Shown in pieces: positions 1 to 11,331 of a stretch of 11,331 nucleotides of DNA (position 1 is the stretch's first letter; every line of letters begins with the position of its first letter). The position numbers and the translations under genes were made by a program. Location of the stretch: positions 1 through 11,331 of the forward strand of contig JBDGSM010000031.1 of NCBI GenBank assembly GCA_042217545.1, given 5' to 3'. Source of the DNA: Candidatus Nanohalobium sp. GTDB taxonomy: Archaea > Nanohalarchaeota > Nanosalinia > Nanosalinales > Nanosalinaceae. A model generated the notes under the pieces. The model saw only the letters and a list, made by a program, of their open reading frames with translations, made no database searches and was not told the origin of the DNA.

Positions 1-1188
1 ATGAACATGGTGAATCAGCCCAGCAGTTTGAAAACTCAGTATATCTATGCGGGTAACTCGGTTCATCCTGATGGTCCTGTTAATTCATCTGTTATCAGCG
101 ACACGGATCCTGGTGTCTTTCTGGGCCTGTTGAGTATCGCGTACCTGTTTGGCAATGATTTCGCCGGAAACGGTGAAACTGAACCTGACGGTGCTGTGAT
201 GGAGGTGCAGGTGCCTTCGGAGGAAGTAGGAACTCTTATCGCACCAAAGGTTGTCCGATTGAACTCCTCGAACTGGAAGGTGAGTCCCGGCAGCTATGTA
301 GGGAAGTCTAACAGTCGTGCGATCCTTGAGGAGCTGGAGAGAGATGCTCAAAGGATGAATATGGATAATCCGAGAGAGATCTACAGAGAATACCTCAGGA
401 AATGTGCACAGGCAGAAAGCTACGATCAAATATTCCAGGCAGGAATAATTCACTGGGCGATCCCCCATGAGATGCAGATTAACCGGATAACAGCTGTCTG
501 GGATCTGGATTACTCCCAGAAACCTGCATGGGAAAGCCTTGGAGAATACATCAGATCCATCAGGGAGAAGTCTCCGGAGAAAGTGCCTGAAGGCAGAAAA
601 GGTAACACCCTCAGGACCAAGATCAAGAGGCACGCACAGAGCTCGGAGAACGTACTGGAGATACTGGAGGAAGTGGAGAACCTTCTCCTGAACATCAAGG
701 TGAACACGGAGAAAGCGAAGAAAGATCACAAGACGCCAGCTTACTACAGAAAACACCAGAAGGAGATAATACAGCACCTGGAACTTTACGAGGAGAAGCT
801 TTCACAGCTTAAACAGGCGATGGAGAACGATCTCGGGATACAGGTCGATTTCCAGACTGTGGACTCCATGGACAAGTTCCTTAAAGAACTTAAATTCTGG
901 CACGAGCACGCGGAGGGAATAACAGAAAGGATCGCAGAAATGATCGACGAAGAGAAAAGCAGAGCTCACAAAGAGGACTGGGACCGCGAAGAAGTCGAAA
1001 AAGAAGAGAGGTTCGAGGAAAGGATGGATGAAGAGATCAGCGACGACATATCCAAACTACCTGAGTTCACACCTGTCATAGAGTACCTTCAGCAGAACGA
1101 CATATACGAGCACTCCACAGGCTCTGTGGACTCAAAAATCCTCAACTTCATGGACGCCGTAGGATTCAAGAACCAACCAGAAACCTGA
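1..1188 (+). CDS. Hypothetical acidic protein; possible ADP-ribosyltransferase-fold N-terminal domain plus helical/coiled-coil C-terminus (true start may lie upstream of the window)
   Basis: 395-aa ORF with halophile-like acidic composition. Motif order IYAGNS ... PGVFLG...IAYLFG ... GAVMEVQVP ... HWAIPHEMQINRITAVW resembles ART-fold strands. The C-terminal half is E/K-rich and helical. The function is an inference; the CDS itself is well supported. Confidence 0.75.
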   Translation: MNMVNQPSSLKTQYIYAGNSVHPDGPVNSSVISDTDPGVFLGLLSIAYLFGNDFAGNGETEPDGAVMEVQVPSEEVGTLIAPKVVRLNSSNWKVSPGSYVGKSNSRAILEELERDAQRMNMDNPREIYREYLRKCAQAESYDQIFQAGIIHWAIPHEMQINRITAVWDLDYSQKPAWESLGEYIRSIREKSPEKVPEGRKGNTLRTKIKRHAQSSENVLEILEEVENLLLNIKVNTEKAKKDHKTPAYYRKHQKEIIQHLELYEEKLSQLKQAMENDLGIQVDFQTVDSMDKFLKELKFWHEHAEGITERIAEMIDEEKSRAHKEDWDREEVEKEERFEERMDEEISDDISKLPEFTPVIEYLQQNDIYEHSTGSVDSKILNFMDAVGFKNQPET

Positions 1189-1194
1189 CAGCTA

Positions 1195-2067
1195 TCACAT
1201 CTCACGCAGCCTTTCGATCCTCTTCTCCAGAGGAGGATGCGTGGAAAAGAAAGAGGCCCTGTTCTTCAAAGGGTTCGAGAAGTACAGGTGTGAAACCGCT
1301 TTGTTGACGTCCATCTTCTGATCCTTCTGCTGCTGGATCTTCTCCAGCGCCGAGGCGAGGCCTTCGGGGTAGCGTGTCATCTCAGCGCCTGATGCGTCGG
1401 CGAGGTATTCTCTTTTACGTGATATTGCGAGCTGTACCATTCTTGCGCTTATTGGTGCGAGTACTGCGAGTATGAGGCCTGCTGCTATTGCCCATGGTGG
1501 TGCGTCTCTGTCTCCGGCACCGAAGAACATGCTGTGGAGCAGTAGTTCGCTTAGTATGCTTATCATGCCGATGAGGGCTACTGCTATGGTCATGAACATT
1601 ATGTCCTGGTTTTTGATGTGGGAGAGTTCATGTGCCAGGACGCCTTCAAGTTCGTCTTTATCCAGTCTTTCCAGTGCTCCTGTGGTTACGCAGACTTTGC
1701 CGTCCTCAGGTTTCCTGCCTGTGGCGAAGGCGTTTATCCTGTCGTCTTCCTGTACGTATAGTTCTGGTTTCGGCATACCTGATGAGATCGTAAGGCCTTC
1801 CATCAGGTCGTAGAGCCGCCTGTACCTGTCTTTGTCGGCTTTTTCTGCTCCGACAACGGAGAGTATCATCTCATCGCTCCGGAAGTAAGAGAAAAGTACG
1901 TAGAGGACTGAGATCGCTGATCCTGCGGCCAGGATCAGGAAAGGGCTCATCCTCGGTACGAAGATCTTTCCTGTAACAAATATCAGGCCCAGAAGTATCA
2001 GAGGTACTATGAAAAGCAGTGCGTAGCTCTTTCTGCGGTTCCATTTGATCTGGTCTTCCAGCATCAT
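1195..2067 (-). CDS. htpX: HtpX-type M48 membrane zinc metalloprotease
   Basis: N-terminal TM helices, INAFATG, LEGVLAHELSH (HExxH), AISRKREYLADASG and STHPPLEKRI motifs; directly downstream of lemA, a common pairing. Confidence 0.95.
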   Translation of the reverse strand: MMLEDQIKWNRRKSYALLFIVPLILLGLIFVTGKIFVPRMSPFLILAAGSAISVLYVLFSYFRSDEMILSVVGAEKADKDRYRRLYDLMEGLTISSGMPKPELYVQEDDRINAFATGRKPEDGKVCVTTGALERLDKDELEGVLAHELSHIKNQDIMFMTIAVALIGMISILSELLLHSMFFGAGDRDAPPWAIAAGLILAVLAPISARMVQLAISRKREYLADASGAEMTRYPEGLASALEKIQQQKDQKMDVNKAVSHLYFSNPLKNRASFFSTHPPLEKRIERLREM

Positions 2068-2073
2068 CGTACT

Positions 2074-2637
2074 TTATTCCTGGGAGAAGTCTACTTCGGG
2101 TAGTTCCCGGTCCGCAGTCTCTATCTCAAGCTGGTTCTTCTCGCTCTTCCCCAGCATGTTTGCAAACATCACGGCCGGGAAGGTCTCGATAGCATTGTTG
2201 TACTCCATAACTGCGTCGTTGTAGTGCTGTCGGGAGTAGGCGATCTTGTTCTCGATACTTGAAAGCTCTTCCTGGAGCTGCTGGAAGTTCTCTGAAGCCT
2301 TCAGGTCCGGATAGTTCTCGGCGACCGCGAATAGGGATTTCAGGGCCTGACCCATCTCGTTTCCTGCCTTGGCCTCTTCCTCAGGGCTCTGCGCATTAAT
2401 CATTTTTTCACGGCTTTCCGAGACTTTCTCCATAACCTCTTTCTCATGCTCCATGTATCCTTCCACAGTCTCCTGCAGGTTAGGTACGAGATCAGCACGT
2501 TTCTTCAGCTGGACATCTATCTGAGCCCAGGAGTTATCCACCCTGTTCTCCAGCTTTACAATCCTGTTGTAGTAGTAAACAACTATCAAGGCAAGCAGGA
2601 CAACTATCCCGCCGACGATGTAAGGTAAAAGTGACAT
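2074..2637 (-). CDS. lemA: LemA family membrane-anchored protein
   Basis: N-terminal TM, then YN...NSWAQIDVQLKKRADLVPNL, AVAENYPDLKASENF, ENKIAYSRQHYNDAV, FP. Confidence 0.96.
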   Translation of the reverse strand: MSLLPYIVGGIVVLLALIVVYYYNRIVKLENRVDNSWAQIDVQLKKRADLVPNLQETVEGYMEHEKEVMEKVSESREKMINAQSPEEEAKAGNEMGQALKSLFAVAENYPDLKASENFQQLQEELSSIENKIAYSRQHYNDAVMEYNNAIETFPAVMFANMLGKSEKNQLEIETADRELPEVDFSQE

Positions 2638-2660
2638 AGAAACAGAACTTCACTTGTAAA

Positions 2661-2667
2661 CTTAAAA
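2661..2667 (-). promoter_or_regulatory. Archaeal TATA box for lemA-htpX (leaderless)
   Basis: TTTTAAG on the minus strand, 24-30 nt upstream of the ATG at 2637. Confidence 0.6.
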
Positions 2668-2728
2668 GCTGTTCGCTTCAGAAACGGAAACCCAGAACTC
2701 AAGGCCTGAACCAGACAATACCATGGAA

Positions 2729-3211
2729 CTACTGCAGCTTCTTCCTCATCACTTTCTGCCTGATCTCGCTGCCGTTAAGCTCCGTAACCTCCTCTTTTTC
2801 CTCCTCAAAACCTTTATACTGATAAAAACCAAGTCCCTTGCGGTTCTCACTCATAACCTCCAGTTTAACCACTTTACCGCCTCTATCGACTATTTCCTTC
2901 TCCGCTCTATCGTAGAGTGCTGATCCCAGGCCTTCACCCTGATTGCTAGGCCTCAGGTAGAGCCTGTGCAGATGCGCCTCTTCCCCTTTGACCGATGCAT
3001 GCACATAACCTGCTATCCTTCCTTCAACTTCCGCTACAAAGAATATTGGCTCTTTCACCTGCTGCCTGAGATCTTTGGTAGAGTACCAGTCGTTTACAAT
3101 ACCTTCGATCGTTTCCTCCGGGATAATACCTGAGTAAGTGTCCTGCCAGGACTCTCTGGCGACTTCACGAATTTCTTCAATGTCCTCATGGTCCGCGTGA
3201 CGTACAGTCAT
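2729..3211 (-). CDS. GNAT family N-acetyltransferase
   Basis: LHRLYLRPSNQGEGLGSAL acetyl-CoA motif A, N..GLGFYQYKGF motif B, N-terminal SWQDTYSGII; ATGA overlap with the upstream S66 gene at 3208-3211. Confidence 0.92.
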   Translation of the reverse strand: MTVRHADHEDIEEIREVARESWQDTYSGIIPEETIEGIVNDWYSTKDLRQQVKEPIFFVAEVEGRIAGYVHASVKGEEAHLHRLYLRPSNQGEGLGSALYDRAEKEIVDRGGKVVKLEVMSENRKGLGFYQYKGFEEEKEEVTELNGSEIRQKVMRKKLQ

Positions 3212-4257
3212 CTCTGGAACTCCAGAGCTTTCTCCTCAGGCCTTAAAACGATTTTACCTCCCAGCTGAAGAGGAATCTTTGGATCAGTATGCCCGAAATC
3301 TACATCGAAAACCACGGGAGTCCCGGGACAGTACCTCTCAACTTCCTCCCTGATTCTCTGCTTCTGCTTCCTGTGGTACTCCTCTTTCTCCTCCAGGGTT
3401 TTCTCCTCTCCATGAAGACTCTGCCTAACAGGCCTTCCGACCATTATGGCCTTAAACTTCTGCAGAAATCCTTTCTCGCCCATACACATCAGCCATCGCT
3501 TTACTTCAGCCTCTGAAGGAGCTTCCTCCGAGGTCTCCAGCGCCAGGACATCCCCTGGAACATCTTCCTCATCCAGAAGGCCTGATGCCAGTTGCCAGTG
3601 CAGTATCTCGAAGCATCCGCCGAAAAGCCTTCCTGAGACAGGACCCGAGAAGTTCCAGAACTCCCAGCCCGGGTTCTCAAATCTTTCACGTGTATCCGAT
3701 ATCTCTTCGCCCTCTATATCCACGAAACCATCGGCAAACCCCTCCGAGGCCTCGATCTTTCCCAGGCTGTCCTGGAAGAAGGCCTTTTCCAGGTTTTTGA
3801 AAGTATACTCTGCCAGTTCTCCTTCCGCCATAAGATCAGCTACGAACTGCCCTCCGTAAAAGCTCTCGAGCCCTAACTGGTTCAGGAAGATGTGAAGATT
3901 GGTGTTGTCGCTTAAACCGTAGAAACGTGTCGGATTTTTCTCCAGGCGCTCAGATTCGAGATGTTTCAGAACTCTGAGCTGTTCATCTCCGCCGGTCACG
4001 GCTACAACTCCTTTGATCTCCGGATCCTCGAAGGCCTCCATGATCTCCTCGGCTTTCTCCGCCGGATGCTCATTCAGGTACTCTGTACTTTTTTCTGCAG
4101 TGCTGTAGACCACTGGCTCAAGTTCAAACCGGTTTTCCAGGAGTTCAAGGCCTCTTTCAAATGCGGCAGGGAAGCGTTCTATACCTCCGGAGGTTCCCAG
4201 GACTGCTACTTTATCTCCTCTCTCAAGTTTATCCGGTGAAATCATCTCTTCAGCCAT
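3208..4257 (-). CDS. S66 family serine peptidase (MccF / LD-carboxypeptidase-like)
   Basis: P.KL..GDKVA, TGGD, FYGLSDNT (catalytic Ser), SGRLFGGC, LETSEE (Glu), DFGHTDP (His), LGG: intact Ser-Glu-His triad. Confidence 0.93.
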   Translation of the reverse strand: MAEEMISPDKLERGDKVAVLGTSGGIERFPAAFERGLELLENRFELEPVVYSTAEKSTEYLNEHPAEKAEEIMEAFEDPEIKGVVAVTGGDEQLRVLKHLESERLEKNPTRFYGLSDNTNLHIFLNQLGLESFYGGQFVADLMAEGELAEYTFKNLEKAFFQDSLGKIEASEGFADGFVDIEGEEISDTRERFENPGWEFWNFSGPVSGRLFGGCFEILHWQLASGLLDEEDVPGDVLALETSEEAPSEAEVKRWLMCMGEKGFLQKFKAIMVGRPVRQSLHGEEKTLEEKEEYHRKQKQRIREEVERYCPGTPVVFDVDFGHTDPKIPLQLGGKIVLRPEEKALEFQR

Positions 4258-4786
4258 CGTATTCGTTCTCCAGAATGCTCATCCAGTGTGCGTCCTTCCA
4301 TTCTCCATCTACGTACTTGTAATCTCTCTCCGTTCCTTCCTCCTGGAAACCTGCTTTCTCCATAACTCTTTTCGAGGCCTCGTTACCGTCCAGATATGCT
4401 CCACGTATCTTGTGCCTGTTCAGAGTTTCAAAGCCGTATTTCACAGCCAGCTTCAGCGATACAGTCATGATTCCCTGGCCGTGGAAAGCTGGTTCAAGGA
4501 AGTAGCCGACTGCGGACCTTCCGTAGTCCTTGTCAAGACCGCCAAGGAAGATATGCCCGGCTTTTTCACCCTGGTACTCTATCAGGAAGTGGACTGTATC
4601 GCTGTTGCCCCTCTCCTGCTCTATGTAATCTTTTTCTGCTTCAAGGCTTACAGGCTTTGGCGCGCTCCCCAGGAAAGGCCTTACCTCCATGCCCGTTAAT
4701 GTGTCGCGGAGAAATTCGGCGTCGCTTTTCTCCACAGGCCTCAGAATAATTTCTCCGTCCTGGAGGAACTTGTTTTCTCTACTCAT
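4250..4786 (-). CDS. RimJ/RimL family GNAT acetyltransferase
   Basis: LRPVEKSD, VGYFLEPAFHGQGIMT, NEASKRVMEKAGFQEEG, YVDGEWKD. Start placed at ATG 4786 (MSRENK) rather than 4798 because GGTGA lies 8 nt upstream and the ATG overlaps the end of the previous gene. Confidence 0.92.
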   Translation of the reverse strand: MSRENKFLQDGEIILRPVEKSDAEFLRDTLTGMEVRPFLGSAPKPVSLEAEKDYIEQERGNSDTVHFLIEYQGEKAGHIFLGGLDKDYGRSAVGYFLEPAFHGQGIMTVSLKLAVKYGFETLNRHKIRGAYLDGNEASKRVMEKAGFQEEGTERDYKYVDGEWKDAHWMSILENEYDG

Positions 4787-5312
4787 CTCGGTGTTCACCC
4801 TTCAGTTTTCCGAAGTAAACTGCGTCCCGGTACTCTCCCTCGGTGTAAACGTGTTCCCTCAGTCTTCCCTCCTGTTCGAACCCGAGTTTCCTCCAGATGC
4901 TCTGTGAAGCCTCGTTCTCGGAGTGGGCTCGTGCATAGATTTTGTGGTAGTTGAGCTGGTTGAAGCCGTAATCCGTCATTATACTTGATGCTTCGGTGCC
5001 GTAACCGTTTCCATGGTAGTTAGGGTGCAGCCAGATTCCGATTTCCGCCACCTTTGACTCCTCACTATGCTGGTTTAGAGAGATTATGCCCATCGGTTCC
5101 TCTCCGCGGCATATAAGCAGGTGCACATCATCTTCATCTCTTATGACGTCCTGGAAGAACTCCTCTTCATCTTCAAGGTTCTGAGGTCTCCTGTTCAGCA
5201 TGTGAACCCGTACATCAGGGTGATTTACGCCATCTCTCAGGAACTCGATATCATCTTTTTCTACAGTCCTTAAATGCACGTTCTCTCCCTCGAGGAATAC
5301 ATTACCGGGCAT
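4779..5312 (-). CDS. RimJ/RimL family GNAT acetyltransferase (paralog of 4250-4786)
   Basis: MPGNVFLEGENVHLRTVEKDD, EIGIWLHPNYHGNGYGTEA, NEASQSIWRKLGFEQEGRLREH. Confidence 0.94.
   Translation of the reverse strand: MPGNVFLEGENVHLRTVEKDDIEFLRDGVNHPDVRVHMLNRRPQNLEDEEEFFQDVIRDEDDVHLLICRGEEPMGIISLNQHSEESKVAEIGIWLHPNYHGNGYGTEASSIMTDYGFNQLNYHKIYARAHSENEASQSIWRKLGFEQEGRLREHVYTEGEYRDAVYFGKLKGEHRDE
4795..4799 (-). promoter_or_regulatory. Archaeal Shine-Dalgarno for the ATG at 4786
   Basis: Minus strand reads GGTGA-ACACCGAG-ATG, for an internal gene of an operon. Confidence 0.55.
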
Positions 5313-5333
5313 AAACCAAAATTTGAACCGCTC

Positions 5334-5341
5334 GTATAAAA
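5334..5341 (-). promoter_or_regulatory. TATA box for the GNAT-GNAT-S66-GNAT operon
   Basis: TTTTATAC on the minus strand, 22-29 nt upstream of ATG 5312. Confidence 0.6.
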
Positions 5342-5372
5342 CCGTACCCGGAAAACCGCGGGCAACCCATGG

Positions 5373-5378
5373 TTATAA
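5373..5378 (+). promoter_or_regulatory. TATA box for the SdpI-family gene
   Basis: TTATAA 27-32 nt upstream of ATG 5405. Confidence 0.55.
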
Positions 5379-5404
5379 CAGAATCACCCCCCGAAAAGTT
5401 CCTC

Positions 5405-6046
5405 ATGGACTCGCAAAAGAAAGAATACCTTGTAGCAGCAGTATTCGCACTCATGGCAGGTATAACCGTCTACGGCTTCCTGAACATCCAGGGCGACATA
5501 GCCGTACATTTCAACGCATCAGGCCAGCCCAACAACACTATGAGCAAATTTTCAGGCCTCATGATCCTGCCAGTCATATCTATAGCTGTCTACCTTCTCA
5601 TAATGTATCTTACGAGTATCGATCCGCTCAAGGAAAACGTTGAAAACTTCAGGCCTTCCCTGAAAGGCCTTGCAATCTTTATCACAGGATTCCTTACATA
5701 CATCCAGGGAATGATAGTATTCTGGAACCTGGGATACTCATTCAACGTTTCAGCTGCTATAACGCCAGGGATCGCCGTCATGTTCTACGCGATGGGCGTG
5801 CTGTGTGACAGGGCGGAGAGAAACTGGTTCATAGGTGTGAGAACTCCGTGGACGTTGAGCAGCGACGAGGTCTGGAGAAAGACTCACAGGAAGGCTGCGC
5901 CACTGTTCAAGCTTTCAGGTCTGATCGCTTTAGGCGGCCTGGTATTCCCCCAGTACCTTCTTGCATTTGTACTGATCCCTGTGATAGCTGTATCTATCTA
6001 TGCAACTGTTTACAGCTTCAAGGCCTACAGGGATCTCGAGAAATAG
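5405..6046 (+). CDS. SdpI family immunity membrane protein (DUF1648 + SdpI domains)
   Basis: IAVHFNASGQPN (DUF1648), IDPLKEN, RNWFIGVRTPWTLSSDEVWRKTHR (SdpI) and about 6 TM helices. Start moved from 5369 to ATG 5405 because a TATA box sits inside the longer ORF start. Confidence 0.92.
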   Translation: MDSQKKEYLVAAVFALMAGITVYGFLNIQGDIAVHFNASGQPNNTMSKFSGLMILPVISIAVYLLIMYLTSIDPLKENVENFRPSLKGLAIFITGFLTYIQGMIVFWNLGYSFNVSAAITPGIAVMFYAMGVLCDRAERNWFIGVRTPWTLSSDEVWRKTHRKAAPLFKLSGLIALGGLVFPQYLLAFVLIPVIAVSIYATVYSFKAYRDLEK

Positions 6047-6047
6047 T

Positions 6048-6248
6048 TTATTTTCTCCTGTACTGGTAGGTTTTCAAGCCTATGTAGTAAATAACTGTTA
6101 TCCCAAACGATAGAGGGATTGGCGAGATATTGAAGAAGTACTGTGCCAGTGGAGGAACCAGGAGCCAGAATAGCAGCAGGAAGACTGCGACTGCAAACTT
6201 TTTCGGCCTCTCACTTGCCGTCTCCCTGATCTTATCCATGTAGCCCAT
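6048..6248 (-). CDS. Small two-TM membrane protein, hypothetical
   Basis: 66 aa with two hydrophobic segments flanked by basic residues; TTAAAA box at 6274-6279 on the minus strand; fills the gap between neighbouring genes. Confidence 0.7.
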   Translation of the reverse strand: MGYMDKIRETASERPKKFAVAVFLLLFWLLVPPLAQYFFNISPIPLSFGITVIYYIGLKTYQYRRK

Positions 6249-6289
6249 GTAGAAATTTAGTTGCGGTGAAAGGTTTTAACGTCAGGCCC

Positions 6290-7540
6290 TTATTCTGTTC
6301 TCTGCCTGTTTACTTCCTCTATGCTTACCTGGTCTCTCAGCAGGGAGTTCAGGAAATGCTCCAGTTCTATCATCTTTTTCTGTTTCCTGTCCTGTTTCCT
6401 GTTCCTCTTCTCCTCCAGGTCACGGACGGTGTCCTTCTTCTCCATCAGGTCGTTTTCAAGCCGCTGCTTCTTCTGCTTCAGCTCGTCCTTTCTCTCATCT
6501 ATCTCTATCTCCTCAAGTCTCTCTTCAACGTCCTCCAGCTCTCCGGACAGTTCCTCGATCCCATCCATATGCTGTTCGAATTCCTCAAAGTACTTCGCCG
6601 CGTCCACAAACTTTTTCTCCTGTCTTTCCCCTAGAAAGTCCTCCTGCCTGATCCTCTTGATGGCCTCACGTACCTCATCCGACGGATCGGAGAGTTCCTC
6701 GATATCCTCGTCTTTCAGCTTCTTCAACATGTTTAGACGGCCTTCAAATGTCAGGCCTTCGTTTTCAATGTTGTAGATAAGTTTTTTCAGACCTCTCTCC
6801 ATCTTTGAGGCCTCTTCCCGGATTTCAGCTTTTCTCCGCTTCCTCTTCTTTTCCAGCTCCTTTTTCTCTTTCTCCAGGGATTTCATATGCTGCCATTCAT
6901 CGGTATCCTCTACCTTTTCGATCTCTTTCTCGGTGCTTTCGAGATCAGCCTTAATGCTCCGTGTATCCTTGCCTTCGAGAGCTTTCTCCGCTTCCTCCAG
7001 GTCTTCATCCGCTTCTTCTATCTCGTTCACGTAGTCCTTCACCATTTCAAGCTGGACCACGACCTGATACTGGGTTTCGACGAAGTCCTCCATCTTCTCC
7101 TCATGCTTAACCAAGCGGTCCAGAGCGTTGGAGAGCTCTGGAGCATCCTTGTGGACGTATCTCATGACCTCGCCTTCCTTCCGTGAGACATCGTTGAAAT
7201 CCTCAACAAAGTTGTGAAGATCCTCAAGATGCTCCTCGGTATCTTCAGAAGGATCAAAGTCTTCGACAAGCCGTTTCCTGGATCTGTAGAAGTTCTGCGC
7301 TACATCCTTCACCACCTTCAGGCGTTTGGAGTCCTCGTAATCGTTGAACGCTTCAAGGCCTTCCGCTATTTCTTTCCTGATCTCTTCAGTCGTCTCCCTG
7401 AAATCTTTCTCCCTTCTTTTTGCAGTCTCCAGGTCTCTCGACTTCTTCTGGCTGAAAAGTTCCGGTGCATCACGCCACGAGATCTCGATGTTCTCTGCCT
7501 GTGAACCCAGTTTATCCTTCAGTTTTTCGACAATTCCCAT
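6290..7540 (-). CDS. Long acidic coiled-coil protein, hypothetical
   Basis: About 416 aa, E/K-rich heptad character, no Walker motif. ATG 7540 preferred over TTG 7546 because TATAAG (minus, 7565-7570) lies 25-30 nt upstream. Confidence 0.85.
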   Translation of the reverse strand: MGIVEKLKDKLGSQAENIEISWRDAPELFSQKKSRDLETAKRREKDFRETTEEIRKEIAEGLEAFNDYEDSKRLKVVKDVAQNFYRSRKRLVEDFDPSEDTEEHLEDLHNFVEDFNDVSRKEGEVMRYVHKDAPELSNALDRLVKHEEKMEDFVETQYQVVVQLEMVKDYVNEIEEADEDLEEAEKALEGKDTRSIKADLESTEKEIEKVEDTDEWQHMKSLEKEKKELEKKRKRRKAEIREEASKMERGLKKLIYNIENEGLTFEGRLNMLKKLKDEDIEELSDPSDEVREAIKRIRQEDFLGERQEKKFVDAAKYFEEFEQHMDGIEELSGELEDVEERLEEIEIDERKDELKQKKQRLENDLMEKKDTVRDLEEKRNRKQDRKQKKMIELEHFLNSLLRDQVSIEEVNRQRTE

Positions 7541-7573
7541 AACCAAGGGAAAGGGCTCCAGAGACTTATACCT

Positions 7574-7921
7574 TTAACCTGGACGGAACTCGCTGATCTC
7601 GAAGTTATCCCTGAGAACGTCCTCTACCCGGGAAAGTCGCTCCATATCAGTGTCCTTCGGCAGGAAACGCTTCCTGGAAGAGGTCCTGGACTCGATAACG
7701 CCCAGATGTTCCAGCGCATTCAGTGAAGAACCAGCGGAGGAAACAGTCAGCGGAAAGTTCTCGGCAACCTTCGAAGAAGTGAAAGAAAGACCCTGCTTCA
7801 CCGCAAAATAACGGACAGCAGCCCTGATAACGTAGAAATTCCTGGTCAAGGCCTGGAACTGCCTGCCATGAAGATCCTTGACTCTTACAACATCCTCCTT
7901 CAACTCAGAAAGTTCCTGCAT
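7574..7921 (-). CDS. Putative winged helix-turn-helix DNA-binding protein
   Basis: FTSSKVAENFPLTVSSAGSSLNALEHLGVIESRTSSRKRF fits an HTH plus wing. ATG 7921 (MQELSEL) preferred, with TTTTTTAC at 7949-7956 on the minus strand. Confidence 0.72.
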   Translation of the reverse strand: MQELSELKEDVVRVKDLHGRQFQALTRNFYVIRAAVRYFAVKQGLSFTSSKVAENFPLTVSSAGSSLNALEHLGVIESRTSSRKRFLPKDTDMERLSRVEDVLRDNFEISEFRPG

Positions 7922-8031
7922 GGGTACACAACCATCCGCGCTCCACACGTAAAAAATACCCGGCAGAAAGGAAATCCACCCCAACATACTATATTTTTAT
8001 TAGTGTAAGGTAACAAATATTTTTTCGACAG

Positions 8032-9136
8032 GTGTCCGAGTTGAACGAGCAGCAAAAAGTCGAAACAGTTGAAAGAGAAGATCTGACAGAGGTAGAGGAC
8101 CTAAGATCCGCGCTGACATCCGACAGACTGGTAAGGCCTCAGAAGAGAGCGTTTCCAAATACGAAGTTCACTACGGATAGTTCTGAAACAGTTGAAGTCT
8201 TCAGAGCCTCGGACAGCCCTGTATTCGAACTGGATCACAGCAGAGAACATATAATGGAGCCAGAAAAATATTGAATGGGCAGCGCTTACCGCAGAAGAGG
8301 CCTCAAAGTTCTACACGGAGCTTGCGGAGGAGTTGGAGGATATATTCGGCGAAGGTTCCGTACTTCACTTCTACGAGGCCTATGAGCCCGGCGATGAGGT
8401 GAAGATGTCTGACCACGTTGACAGGAACTCGAAGAAGCACAGCCTCTGGATGTACGTTAACGGAGAGCCATAGCTCACGGTCCAGGGAAAAGTACCGGAG
8501 GAAGAAGTACCAGGCCTCATGGAAAGGAAAGAGCATAAATGGGAGATCGACCACTACCTGGAAGAAGGACTCTACCTGGAGGAAGAGGAGATAATTGAAC
8601 AGAGAGTTCCTTTCGGCAACAAAGTCGTGGAGATAATGAACTCCGAAGCCGACAAGGAAACCGTGGAAGAACTTGAACAGATCTGGCAGGAGTACAACGA
8701 CTCCCTGAATAGCCGTGTGGACTACGAACCCGACTACGCAGACGCCTACAATAACATCAAAGGCCTGGACTACAGTGCAGAGGATATTCGGGAGTTCGCA
8801 CTGGCACACACAGAGTTCAGGGATGAGGCAAGCAGCAGACAGGAACAGAGAATGGGCCTGATGCTTTCAGCATTGATGAACTCCTCGGATGAAGACGTAT
8901 TCGCATTACCCGGTTACTGGTCATTGGCGTACCGTAACAACGGCAACCACGTCTTCGTAGAGGAGGAAGCACCATGGATAGGCCATGAGATGGAGGGAGG
9001 AACCCTTTCAGTTCCGTACGGAGCCCAGCTCGGCATAGAACCAGAGGGAACGGAGTACAGGACGGTAGATCGCGGCTACCTAGAGATAACAGAGGCCAGG
9101 ACCCAGAAGCTGCAGGATCCACAGGAAAAGGCCTGA
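8032..9136 (+). pseudogene. Disrupted ~367-codon acidic protein with a degenerate FwdC/GXGXG-like C-terminal region (one frameshift, one amber stop)
   Basis: The frame-1 ORF 8032-8274 continues in frame 2 if one A is removed from the A5 run at 8264-8268 (PENIEWAALTAEEASKFYTELAEELEDIFGEG...). Frame 2 meets TAG at 8471-8473, then reads LTVQGKVPEEEVPGL straight into the 8519-9136 ORF. Confidence 0.75.
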
Positions 9137-9137
9137 C

Positions 9138-9692
9138 CTACTCTATTCCTTCCTCAAGCTTTTTGCGGAAGACCTCACATCTCCTCGAAAAATTTCTGAA
9201 CTTTTCACTGTAGCTGTCATCCTTCAGCTCTCCCTCAGGTCCAAAGACCGTTTCCACACGGGAGATAGGCAGGTTAGGGCCTATGAAACCCCCGAACGTG
9301 ATCACGATGTCGTGAAGATGGTTCAACGCTCTTATACCACCGAACCCGCCTGAAGAAACTGTAATAAATCCAAACGGCTTGTCCTCGTACTCATCGTACA
9401 GGTAGTCCAGAGCAGTCTTCAGGACGCCAGGATAACTGTGGTTGTACTCCGGCGTCGTGATCACTATGAAATCCGCCGCAGCAACTTTCTCGGACAGCTC
9501 CTCGGCAACCCCGGGGACAGACTCCTCATCCTCGACATAGGTCCTGTTCCCGAGAGGAGGAAACTCTTTCTCCTTTAGATCAAATATCTCTGTCTCATGA
9601 CCATCCTCCTGGAAAACCTCGTCCACGGCCTCCGCCGCGTAAACAGATTTTCTACCTTCACGTGCTGTTCCTACAATGTTTAGAACCTTCAT
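9138..9692 (-). CDS. NAD(P)H-dependent FMN reductase (flavodoxin-like fold)
   Basis: IVGTAREGRKS, ADFIVITTPEYNHSYPGVLKTALDYL, KP...VSSGGFGGIRA. Confidence 0.95.
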   Translation of the reverse strand: MKVLNIVGTAREGRKSVYAAEAVDEVFQEDGHETEIFDLKEKEFPPLGNRTYVEDEESVPGVAEELSEKVAAADFIVITTPEYNHSYPGVLKTALDYLYDEYEDKPFGFITVSSGGFGGIRALNHLHDIVITFGGFIGPNLPISRVETVFGPEGELKDDSYSEKFRNFSRRCEVFRKKLEEGIE

Positions 9693-9715
9693 AAAGACAC
9701 AACTGCGCGGGAAAA

Positions 9716-9722
9716 CCTTAAA
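9716..9722 (-). promoter_or_regulatory. TATA box for the FMN reductase
   Basis: TTTAAGG on the minus strand, 24-30 nt upstream of ATG 9692. Confidence 0.6.
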
Positions 9723-9749
9723 TCCCGGTCACTCACCGCACGGTAATCC

Positions 9750-9781
9750 AAAAACAAACAGGATCAAAAACCACCAGAAAA
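9750..9781 (-). terminator. Putative oligo-T archaeal terminator after the PAC2 remnant
   Basis: Several T4-T5 tracts on the minus strand just 3' of the stop at 9787. Confidence 0.35.
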
Positions 9782-9786
9782 CTTTC

Positions 9787-10047
9787 CTAACGCTACATAT
9801 CCTCGGGATAGGCCTCAGTCGTCCTCTGCTGCTCCGCCCTACGTATCTCCTCCGCAAGCCTCTCCTTCTACCTCCGGATCTCATCAGCGGTCTCGATAAG
9901 TAGCTCAGTATCCACATCAAGACCTATCAGAGGCCTGATACCTTCATCGATCGCCACCTGCGCAGCTTTTGGATCAGGAAGGAAAGGATCAGTCTCCACA
10001 AGCAGTCCCAGGCTTTGAAGGCCGTTATCCGAGGCCTCGCGCATCAA
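9787..10047 (-). pseudogene. C-terminal remnant of a PAC2-family proteasome assembly chaperone (PbaA/PbaB-like)
   Basis: Reads LMREASDNGLQSLGLLVETDPFLPDPKAAQVAIDEGIRPLIGLDVDTELLIETADEIRR*KERLAEEIRRAEQQRTTEAYPEDM*R*. The PDP.AA, VDT..L.E.A.EI and M-[Y]-X-stop tail are typical of the family. In-frame TAGs at 9868-9870 and 9793-9795; the N-terminal majority is missing. Confidence 0.8.
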
Positions 10048-10237
10048 CCACAGGAACATCCTGGTCGTAACTTGAGTCCACAGAGATCAAAGGATCAAAT
10101 ATGCCGTGCTCCCAGAGCTTGTCCCTGAAGTCTCTCATATGCTCATGCGCAGTGTAATCAGTACTCGTCAGTTTATCATAGTCCACGGACACAGATATAT
10201 CCCCTACGAAATTCTTAGCCTCTCTCCGTTTTAACAA
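10025..10237 (-). pseudogene. C-terminally truncated paralog of the 10361-10645 protein (start uncertain, possibly GTG 10192)
   Basis: 18/49 identities without gaps to the upstream 94-aa protein; similarity ends at VPVVD, where the PAC2-like frame begins. Confidence 0.7.
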
Positions 10238-10360
10238 ACATTACAGAAAGACAAAGCTACTTCAACAGCTATAACAAACCAGAATACTCCACATACCAAA
10301 GGCCTTCTCCTGAAACATCTCCAGGAAATAAGAAAAGAAGGAGGGATTGAAACCTGGGGC

Positions 10361-10645
10361 CTAGAGCTCGAGATCCATGAATGCGGATTCCCAGATACCG
10401 TGCATCACTTCCTCAAACTCCTCCTCGTTCACACCTTCAAGCCTGTAAGTTTCAGAGAACTCATCATCAGCAACAGGATCATACACGTCAACCTCGACTA
10501 CATGAACGCCATCCCTGCAATCCTTTCCCACGGAAGCAGCAGGATGGTAAAGGCCTTCATCCTCAAGTTTCCCCTCCATATCCTTGAAATGCTGATAAGC
10601 CGTATAACCTAGATCAGTAAGCTTCTCGTGATCAATCACTTCCAC
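10361..10645 (-). CDS. Small acidic hypothetical protein
   Basis: 94 aa, GTG start, acidic. Coding status is supported by the adjacent paralog and an ATAAAAGG box at 10674-10681 on the minus strand. Confidence 0.78.
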   Translation of the reverse strand: MEVIDHEKLTDLGYTAYQHFKDMEGKLEDEGLYHPAASVGKDCRDGVHVVEVDVYDPVADDEFSETYRLEGVNEEEFEEVMHGIWESAFMDLEL

Positions 10646-10772
10646 ATTACTTCCAACAAATGTTTACATCAGACCTTTTATCCAGACTCTACAATCCAAC
10701 AACACTGTTCCAACAATTATACAGTACTCCACAAGAGACAGGAAGGTCAGAAGCGGGAAAGGCCTCTATACA

Positions 10773-10780
10773 TTTTTAAC
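10773..10780 (+). promoter_or_regulatory. TATA box for the 10807 gene
   Basis: TTTTTAAC 27-34 nt upstream of ATG 10807. Confidence 0.55.
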
Positions 10781-10806
10781 CCAGTAGCACAGTAAAACAA
10801 AAATAT

Positions 10807-11298
10807 ATGTCATCCCGCAACAGGCTCGAGGCAGCTGCGAAAAGACTTGAACAGATCGACGACGAAACAGACACAGAACTTCAGGAGCTCCAGGAAGCCA
10901 TAAAAACGATTGAAGAACTCCATGAAGAACACGTCGAAGAACTTGAAGACGACGAAGAATTCATAGAAGAACTCAAAGACCTCTACGTCGAAATAAGAGA
11001 CATCAGAAAGATCGAAGAACACCTGTACAACGAAATAGAACAGTACGGAAACGGAAACATCGCGAAACAACGCTTCAAAAAACTGTATGTCAGAGACGAA
11101 GACCAGCTCGTCGAAATCATCAGTGAAGTCAGGGAAGACCTGGAAGACATGATAACAATCCTCTCCGAAGAAGAAAGATTCACCAACAAAGACCTCGACA
11201 TCGAAGGAGCCACAGAAGAACTCGTAGACGCCCTAACAGAAGAAGAAAAACAACTTGAAGAATCCCACAAACAGATCGAAAAACGAATACTCGGGTAA
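10807..11298 (+). CDS. Highly acidic alpha-helical/coiled-coil hypothetical protein
   Basis: 163 aa, very E/D-rich heptad pattern, consistent A/C-ending codon usage, upstream TATA box. Confidence 0.85.
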   Translation: MSSRNRLEAAAKRLEQIDDETDTELQELQEAIKTIEELHEEHVEELEDDEEFIEELKDLYVEIRDIRKIEEHLYNEIEQYGNGNIAKQRFKKLYVRDEDQLVEIISEVREDLEDMITILSEEERFTNKDLDIEGATEELVDALTEEEKQLEESHKQIEKRILG

Positions 11299-11331
11299 AA
11301 AAGAAACACAAAGGAGAGAGGCCTTAACTCT

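Follow-up and report, generated by a model that had tools for sequence, protein, structure and literature searches.

The palindrome AGGCCT is iterated throughout the genome of a nanohaloarchaeon, Candidatus Nanohalobium sp., and is a real archaeal variant of the highly iterated palindrome (HIP) phenomenon, for which no cognate methylase was found. The window studied here is a stretch of 11,331 nucleotides (assembly GCA_042217545.1, contig JBDGSM010000031.1, C25 in our numbering), in which a preliminary description had reported a HIP-like word present in 37 copies, about 13-fold over-represented and spread over both strands and varied codon phases. Exactly 37 copies were counted, against a mean of 3.46 and a maximum of 9 in 200 dinucleotide shuffles of the window, none of which reached 37, corresponding to an excess of about 11-fold. 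Inside 15 called open reading frames (ORFs) lie 27 of the 37 sites, 20 in minus-strand and 7 in plus-strand genes, with 7, 8, and 12 sites in the three codon phases and encoded peptides such as EGL, RP, and EAS, EAF, or KAF; the other 10 lie outside ORFs, some of them in the putative pseudogenes 8275-8518 and 9700-10350. The data support AGGCCT being a signal at the level of DNA that goes beyond amino-acid usage, and we tentatively attribute its genome-wide spread to a site-local molecular drive acting through a putative binding factor, without DNA methylation.

The excess is not confined to the window. The genome to which it belongs (G000; 1.03 Mb, 92% complete, 1,074 genes by our own gene calls, with acidic proteins) contains 3,699 sites, or 3.58 per kb compared with 3.3 per kb in the window. 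Its RpoA' protein shares 64% identity with a record from Ca. Asbonarchaeaceae, a family of Ca. Nanohalarchaeota, and at most 53% with those of other named archaea, and its DNA occurs in two metagenome runs from salt lakes, both of one study. The word occurs on all 82 contigs, at 1.3-5.9 per kb on each, and is the commonest hexamer of all, with an excess of 13.0-fold over a first-order Markov model and 15-fold over a zero-order model. A generic GGCC bias does not account for this, as GGCC that is not part of AGGCCT occurs at 0.91 of expectation. The order-4 Markov null proposed earlier gave an observed-to-expected ratio of only 1.11, yet this null is circular because 80% of the 5-mers AGGCC and GGCCT are AGGCCT itself. 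The one-mismatch forms, which had been called frequent, are mildly raised overall (GGGCCT/AGGCCC 1.9-fold, TGGCCT 1.2-fold), but at silent sites they are depleted to 0.08-0.41 of expectation.

Within genes, 3,120 sites were observed against 590 after shuffling of synonymous codons, and this 5.3-fold excess over the protein-preserving null proposed in the preliminary description persisted in each phase (4.1-, 5.3-, and 5.9-fold); the next palindrome reached only 1.4-fold over such shuffles. Non-coding DNA held 538 sites against 23 expected (23-fold). Silent positions able to complete AGGCCT do so in about 86-97% of cases at all six positions, rare codons excepted. The four-fold degenerate positions 1, 4, 5, and 6 were completed in 684 of 791, 1528 of 1736, 1011 of 1098, and 536 of 600 cases, and completion by codon amounted to 387 of 398 for Glu GAA and 542 of 578 for Arg AGG. 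Even CAA and CTA, otherwise rare, were used in 45 of 88 and 56 of 109 such cases, compared with 8-9% elsewhere. When all protein-permitted places are counted, 61-75% are filled. Every one-step precursor, by transition or transversion, is depleted, mostly with ln-odds of about 3 (range 0.9-5.1 in G000, G001, and G003, and 0.8-3.3 in G019); the least depleted inner variant is AGGTCT on the coding strand (1.6-1.8). The same silent-site pattern was seen in the relatives G001 and G003 and more weakly in G019, and neither it nor the precursor depletion was seen in G021, a complete genome without AGGCCT enrichment. That codon usage, the amino-acid composition of the proteins, or a general GGCC bias gave rise to the word as a by-product is next to inconceivable: the order-4 ratio would speak for it, but it is contradicted by the excess over codon shuffles in every phase, the abundance in non-coding DNA, the recruitment of rare codons, and the relatives that have orthologous proteins and lack the AGGCCT excess.

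The signal extends into the proteins. At aligned columns, motif-compatible peptides were present 727 times in G000 alone and 268 times in G021 alone, compared with 357 vs 366 for reversed control peptides; together with the codon shuffles and the filling of silent sites, this gain bears out the earlier suspicion that amino-acid usage is insufficient to explain the word. Motif peptides are nearly doubled (15.1 vs 8.5 per 1,000 residues), and common swaps toward AGGCCT are I to L, K to R, S to A, D to E, and D or E to G. Conserved genes carry fewer sites (2.5 per kb, compared with 3.6-3.8 per kb in variable genes) because they offer fewer permitted places; the fill rate is equal in both (0.67-0.73). 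No AGGCCT was found in a 1,242-bp 16S fragment and 18 tRNAs, a recently acquired island of G019, 28 kb long and flanked by an integrase, contains 7 sites, and sites accumulate at stop codons, where constraint ends.

In pooled DNA of the enriched genomes the sites are spaced from one another, the pair density at distance d following 1-0.79exp(-d/33 bp), and nine control hexamers gave no such dip. Restriction to pairs of protein-permitted places, which removes protein effects, left the same short-range suppression: pairs with both places filled reached 0.27 of the expected number at distances of 6-11 bp, 0.66-0.88 at 20-45 bp, and 0.97-1.01 beyond 60 bp, with a fitted length of 23 bp. When two sites lie very close together, their joint weight is about that of a single site. 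Beyond 60 bp neighbors are without influence, the fill rate in G000 being flat (0.79-0.83) whether 1 or 6 further sites lie at 60-500 bp, and the site-favoring effect is therefore local and not per kilobase. A test for helical phasing of this interference at 10 bp gave no significant result; a dip at 16-19 bp was present in four genomes, in bins picked after inspection. A simple periodogram of 840 of the 1,047 kb of G019, a method different from that of PMC5861425, detected no periodicity of 5-100 kb (p 0.3-0.5). The GGCC core is required and the end bases give half-site credit, with NGGCCT at 1.2-1.9-fold in G000 and 3.2-4.9-fold in G019 and inner mismatches at 0.4-1.2-fold. In spacers of four genomes T is favored at -3/-4 (37-46% at -3) and disfavored at -1 (8-15%); within genes the flanking bases hardly alter fill rates. 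A DNA-binding protein that acts as a dimer would be expected to produce such a profile of core, ends, and flanks.

The preliminary description had suggested methylation-coupled biased repair as the origin of the word and had proposed a search for a GGCC/AGGCCT methyltransferase and a Vsr-like nuclease. The outcome was negative. The C5 methylase family PF00145 was found neither in G000 nor in seven of the eight other enriched genomes, including the single-contig G001, G003, G019, and G031; it is present in the enriched G022 and in 11 of 28 non-enriched genomes. PF01555 gave a strong match in one enriched genome only, G019, and the G000 match was rejected as a DNA methylase, being a TIGR01177/Trm-type RNA methylase. 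PF02086 was found in 0 of 5 genomes, and PF02384 was strong only in G003, G019, and the non-enriched G021 among 24 genomes. With 22 methylases from relatives as queries, the sole G000 match was the RNA-methylase gene. No methylase of these four families, which cover C5, N4/N6, Dam-type, and type-I enzymes, is shared by the single-contig enriched genomes (PF07669 and unrecognized families lay outside the search), and Vsr and MutS were each found in 0 of 5 genomes. A Vsr activity would be expected to leave a single T-to-C step, whereas precursors at all six positions are depleted, AGGTCT least. In G021, where a C5 methylase is present, GGCC is avoided (0.44), as is ordinarily the case.

A methylation-directed ratchet as modeled by Elhai, in which a cognate GGCC/AGGCCT methylase from an unrecognized family or from the host would act with a repair nuclease, is thus quite improbable. 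The half-site credit does resemble a two-step ratchet as described in PMC4390886, and the weak depletion of AGGTCT fits it, but on top of the missing enzymes and the behavior of G021, a ratchet of this kind is expected to come to a halt at about one site per kb (PMC4390886), yet 3.6-4 per kb are reached with independence beyond 60 bp. This density and the short length scale argue against strand marking over a kilobase range. AGGCCT may nevertheless have a chromosome-organizing, uptake, or self-marking role, as the preliminary description had put forward.

Among 61 genomes, G001, G002, G003, G019, G022, G023, and G031 carry 1,803-4,489 copies of AGGCCT, G034 carries 762, and the others 30-579. 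The comparison with related genomes that had been proposed was extended by a class-wide pair search, in which 12 of 70 genomes were enriched (43-390 pairs, compared with at most 20), the relatives otherwise lacking the excess. A quick tree of the single gene RpoA', with 38 rows and without 13 family genomes that only the pair search covered, puts the enriched genomes at four positions among negatives, so that they apparently form four interleaved lineages. Enriched relatives share 38-68% of the G000 sites, and saturation accounts for most of this; co-filling of shared permitted positions is 12-23% above independence, and for G003 and G019, which belong to other genera, the excess was 12-18% (187 vs 163-167 and 244 vs 207-216). 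Compared with G021, motif-type peptides are raised in the enriched sister G022 (43 vs 12) and in the decayed G034 (33 vs 12). In G034 only 8 of 76 permitted places are filled (20 kb). The combination of a retained protein scar and few filled places points to a trait that was lost, followed by silent decay, so that sites decay once the process stops. No scar relative to G021 was seen in G069 (12 vs 13) or in 19 pooled distant loci (90 vs 98); the enriched G031, at 13 vs 14 peptides, shows that small samples can miss it. No AGGCCT enrichment was found in 80 loci from other archaea, and a virus scan for triple AGGCCT gave no enriched locus with a halophile-like acidic proteome among the 122 matches listed. 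Two viral contigs with non-acidic proteins, L331 and L297, contain 17 and 13 copies (9-16-fold over 6 kb).

AGGCCT has been written into the genome by point changes at all six positions. In the site-local drive that we tentatively favor, a putative protein would bind it, and the bound protein would favor the site-bearing copy in short-patch repair or gene conversion. The advantage of a site would then be a transmission bias rather than fitness, and the decay length of 25-35 bp may reflect the tract or the footprint. With more reserve we consider that such a methylation-independent, protein-directed drive might have been switched on and off repeatedly in nanohaloarchaea, rewriting genome and proteome via tracts of a few tens of bases. 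It would be the reverse of PRDM9-type hotspot erosion, and its switch should come to light when sisters like G022 and G034 are compared. At 1420-1489 of the window (htpX), two alleles that occur together in public contigs differ at 18 of 70 bases with AGGCCT at 1475 unchanged, which may be an anecdotal hint that short tracts are exchanged; the main contig of run X2 carries the other allele, and run X1 carries both at similar depth.

Several points weigh against the drive. The 1420-1489 tract may be chimeric as a result of assembly, and the window may itself stem from both runs. A gene-content hunt comparing G000 with G021, G019, and G003 found no causal gene, and the excess co-filling may mean that particular positions are conserved or that ancestry is shared. 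Polyploidy and frequent gene conversion are traits of haloarchaea and would have to be assumed for these cells. Convergence, footprint, and protein scar would be equally expected under selection on binding sites.

It is somewhat unlikely that natural selection maintains AGGCCT at thousands of places as the binding site of an abundant protein that handles chromatin or the chromosome, with a second site inside its footprint of 30-60 bp adding nothing. Such selection would leave the same binding-like profile and short-range redundancy and would fit the excess co-filling at orthologous positions in G003 and G019; each genome has 3-4 histone genes, and archaeal histone wraps are on the scale of 30-60 bp. 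Selection has also been argued for cyanobacterial HIP1 (PMC5861425). On the other hand, there is no diminishing return beyond 60 bp and no 5-100 kb periodicity in the analyzed part of G019, histones, which were rejected as a candidate cause, are near-identical between enriched and non-enriched genomes, the majority of relatives do without the sites, and in G034 they were allowed to decay. An improbable alternative is a drive of the uptake-sequence type, in which AGGCCT-bearing DNA would be preferentially taken up or received and then recombined, as in Haemophilus and Neisseria. Known DNA uptake signals are longer than 6 bp and non-palindromic, ComEC and DprA were each found in 0 of 5 genomes (G000 lay outside both searches), and no saturation appears over fragment-scale distances; a giant-protein ATPase, present in 7 of the 9 genomes that are enriched or relic, occurs in 6 of 28 others too. 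The near doubling of motif peptides and the low number of sites in rRNA, in conserved genes, and in newly acquired DNA do parallel what is described for uptake sequences (PMC2817400), and two such sequences less than 100 bp apart give no added uptake (PMC7811141).

The search for a causal gene covered the 418 of the 1,074 G000 proteins without a match in G021, which were compared with 840 of the 1,047 kb of G019 and 420 of the 1,046 kb of G003; those with a counterpart in either were annotated (76 by Pfam) or read by eye, and G022 and G034 were represented by 20-kb pieces. Within this coverage, no DNA methylase or nuclease stood out among the shared proteins absent from G021. DnaG (in 28 of 36 family genomes), the giant-protein HerA/VirB4 ATPase, and a helix-turn-helix protein were rejected by their distribution, as were a DUF2582 winged helix (in many negatives, missing from G003 and G023), a small S-adenosylmethionine methylase (present in the negative G018), and NucS (in three positives and the negative G021, not found in G000). 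The best, though imperfect, co-occurring gene is an acidic orphan of 86 residues, which serves as a lead only. It was found in 6 of 12 enriched and 1 of 58 other class genomes (Fisher p 5e-5, overstated by kinship), between genes for glycyl-tRNA synthetase and a zinc-finger rhomboid-like protein (G000:C7:15008-15190, equal to L417:2108-2290, and L227:1963-2220). None of the five g21 genomes contains it, whereas G069 does, although that genome lacks both the sites and the scar. No Pfam family matched it, and 8 relatives were found among 1.8 billion proteins; its five-helix model has a pLDDT of 80, and the best fold match (Z 5.4) was uninformative.

AGGCCT sites in the window, with the genes or spacers in which they lie
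Sites (encoded peptide)	Location	Strand	Remark
37 dispersed AGGCCT	1358..11324		exact word count
1358, 1475, 1793 (EGL, AGL, EGL)	HtpX/M48 peptidase gene 1195-2067	-	three sites
one site between lemA and GNAT gene	2702..2707		intergenic
2928, 2948 (EGL, RP)	GNAT gene 2729-3211	-	two sites
3238, 3430, 3578, 3747, 3780, 4032, 4148	S66 peptidase gene 3208-4257	-	seven sites, three phases
4375, 4676, 4736 (EAS, RP, RP)	GNAT gene 4250-4798	-	three sites
5554, 5651, 5665, 6021 (SGL, RP, KGL, KAY)	SdpI/DUF1648 gene 5369-6046	+	four sites
6753, 6808, 7356	418-residue ORF 6290-7546	-	three sites, no Pfam match
7849 (QAL)	ORF 7574-7987	-	
8134 (RP)	ORF 8032-8274	+	
8298, 8376, 8512	between called ORFs		three sites, possibly broken gene
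8761 (KGL), 9129 (KA-stop)	ORF 8519-9136	+	
9810, 9931, 10032, 10300	outside called ORFs		four sites
10551 (EGL)	ORF 10361-10645	-	
10760, 11319	intergenic		

Some further observations concern the gene content and word usage of these genomes. The window begins with a 395-residue ORF (1-1188, plus strand) without Pfam match, which has a relative in G003 at 25% identity. Of the 36 family genomes, 8 yielded no DnaG, among them the single-contig G015 and G021 as well as G027, G033, and G034. The region G000:C9:32587-59378 encodes a surface protein of 8,305 residues that ends in a HerA/VirB4-type ATPase and is followed by a second such ATPase gene, a pair present in 6 of 37 genomes. G000:C64:7372-12206, absent from G021, is presumably a chemotaxis-like cluster, with CheY-, CheW-, CheB-, CheA-, and CheD-like proteins recognized by eye. 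Words strongly avoided throughout G000 are CTAG (0.24), CTAA/TTAG, and CCAA/TTGG, together with the codon CAA, which accounts for 9% of Gln; among relatives the density of CTAG is 0.9-3.1 per kb, independent of AGGCCT. ACCGGT has a density of about 0.5-1.1 per kb in the f4 genomes G039, G042, G044, G046, G048, G050, G052, and G054 (near 1 per kb in seven of the eight), several times the level of family f1, and may be a second, weaker iterated palindrome; as an alternate word of G069 it was rejected, with only 296 copies per Mb. CTCGAG is 3.2-4.4-fold over-represented in the Natrialbaceae-type loci L063, L074, L107, and L116, and GATATC 6.1-6.6-fold in L072 and L097.

Among known systems, AGGCCT has the same 6 bp as the StuI-type restriction-modification site; restriction sites are usually avoided, whereas AGGCCT is the most frequent hexamer and searches for a cognate enzyme were negative. 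GDGCHC methylation in Ca. Nanohalococcus occultus, of the same phylum, indicates that methylomes can be read from such cultures, but it concerns 140 motifs of an ordinary restriction system (PMC10266531, PMC11001535); the string GGCC is absent from the main text of both papers. A literature search, with most subscription papers outside its reach, suggests that the AGGCCT iteration has not been described before. Like the uptake sequences of Pasteurellaceae and Neisseria, AGGCCT arises by point changes, about doubles the encoded peptides (PMC2817400), and is scarce in rRNA, new DNA, and conserved genes, with close pairs redundant (PMC2817400, PMC7811141). Uptake sequences are, however, about 10 bp long and bound by an uptake machinery, whereas AGGCCT is a 6-bp palindrome and neither ComEC nor DprA was found.

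The closest relative in kind is cyanobacterial HIP1, GCGATCGC. AGGCCT is a different word in an archaeon instead of a cyanobacterium, 6 bp long and at 3.6-4 per kb compared with about 1 per kb for HIP1. Elhai described a methylase in all genomes with highly over-represented sequences (PMC4390886); for AGGCCT the genome-wide excess and the independence of frame and coding are present, and an encoded cognate methyltransferase was not found. The periodicity of 10-90 kb that characterizes HIP1-like words was not detected for AGGCCT by the simple periodogram of G019, and short-range self-spacing was measured; its scale of 30-60 bp gives a physical size for the responsible event. With genomes of 1 Mb and matched positive, negative, and decayed sisters, a comparison of gene content together with pull-down should allow the cause to be found. 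Protein sequences and codon statistics in these archaea have to be read as distorted by a force at the DNA level. Like HIP1, AGGCCT is a palindrome, hyper-abundant in all frames and in spacers, patchy among relatives, and most tolerant at its end positions (PMC4390886, PMC5861425).

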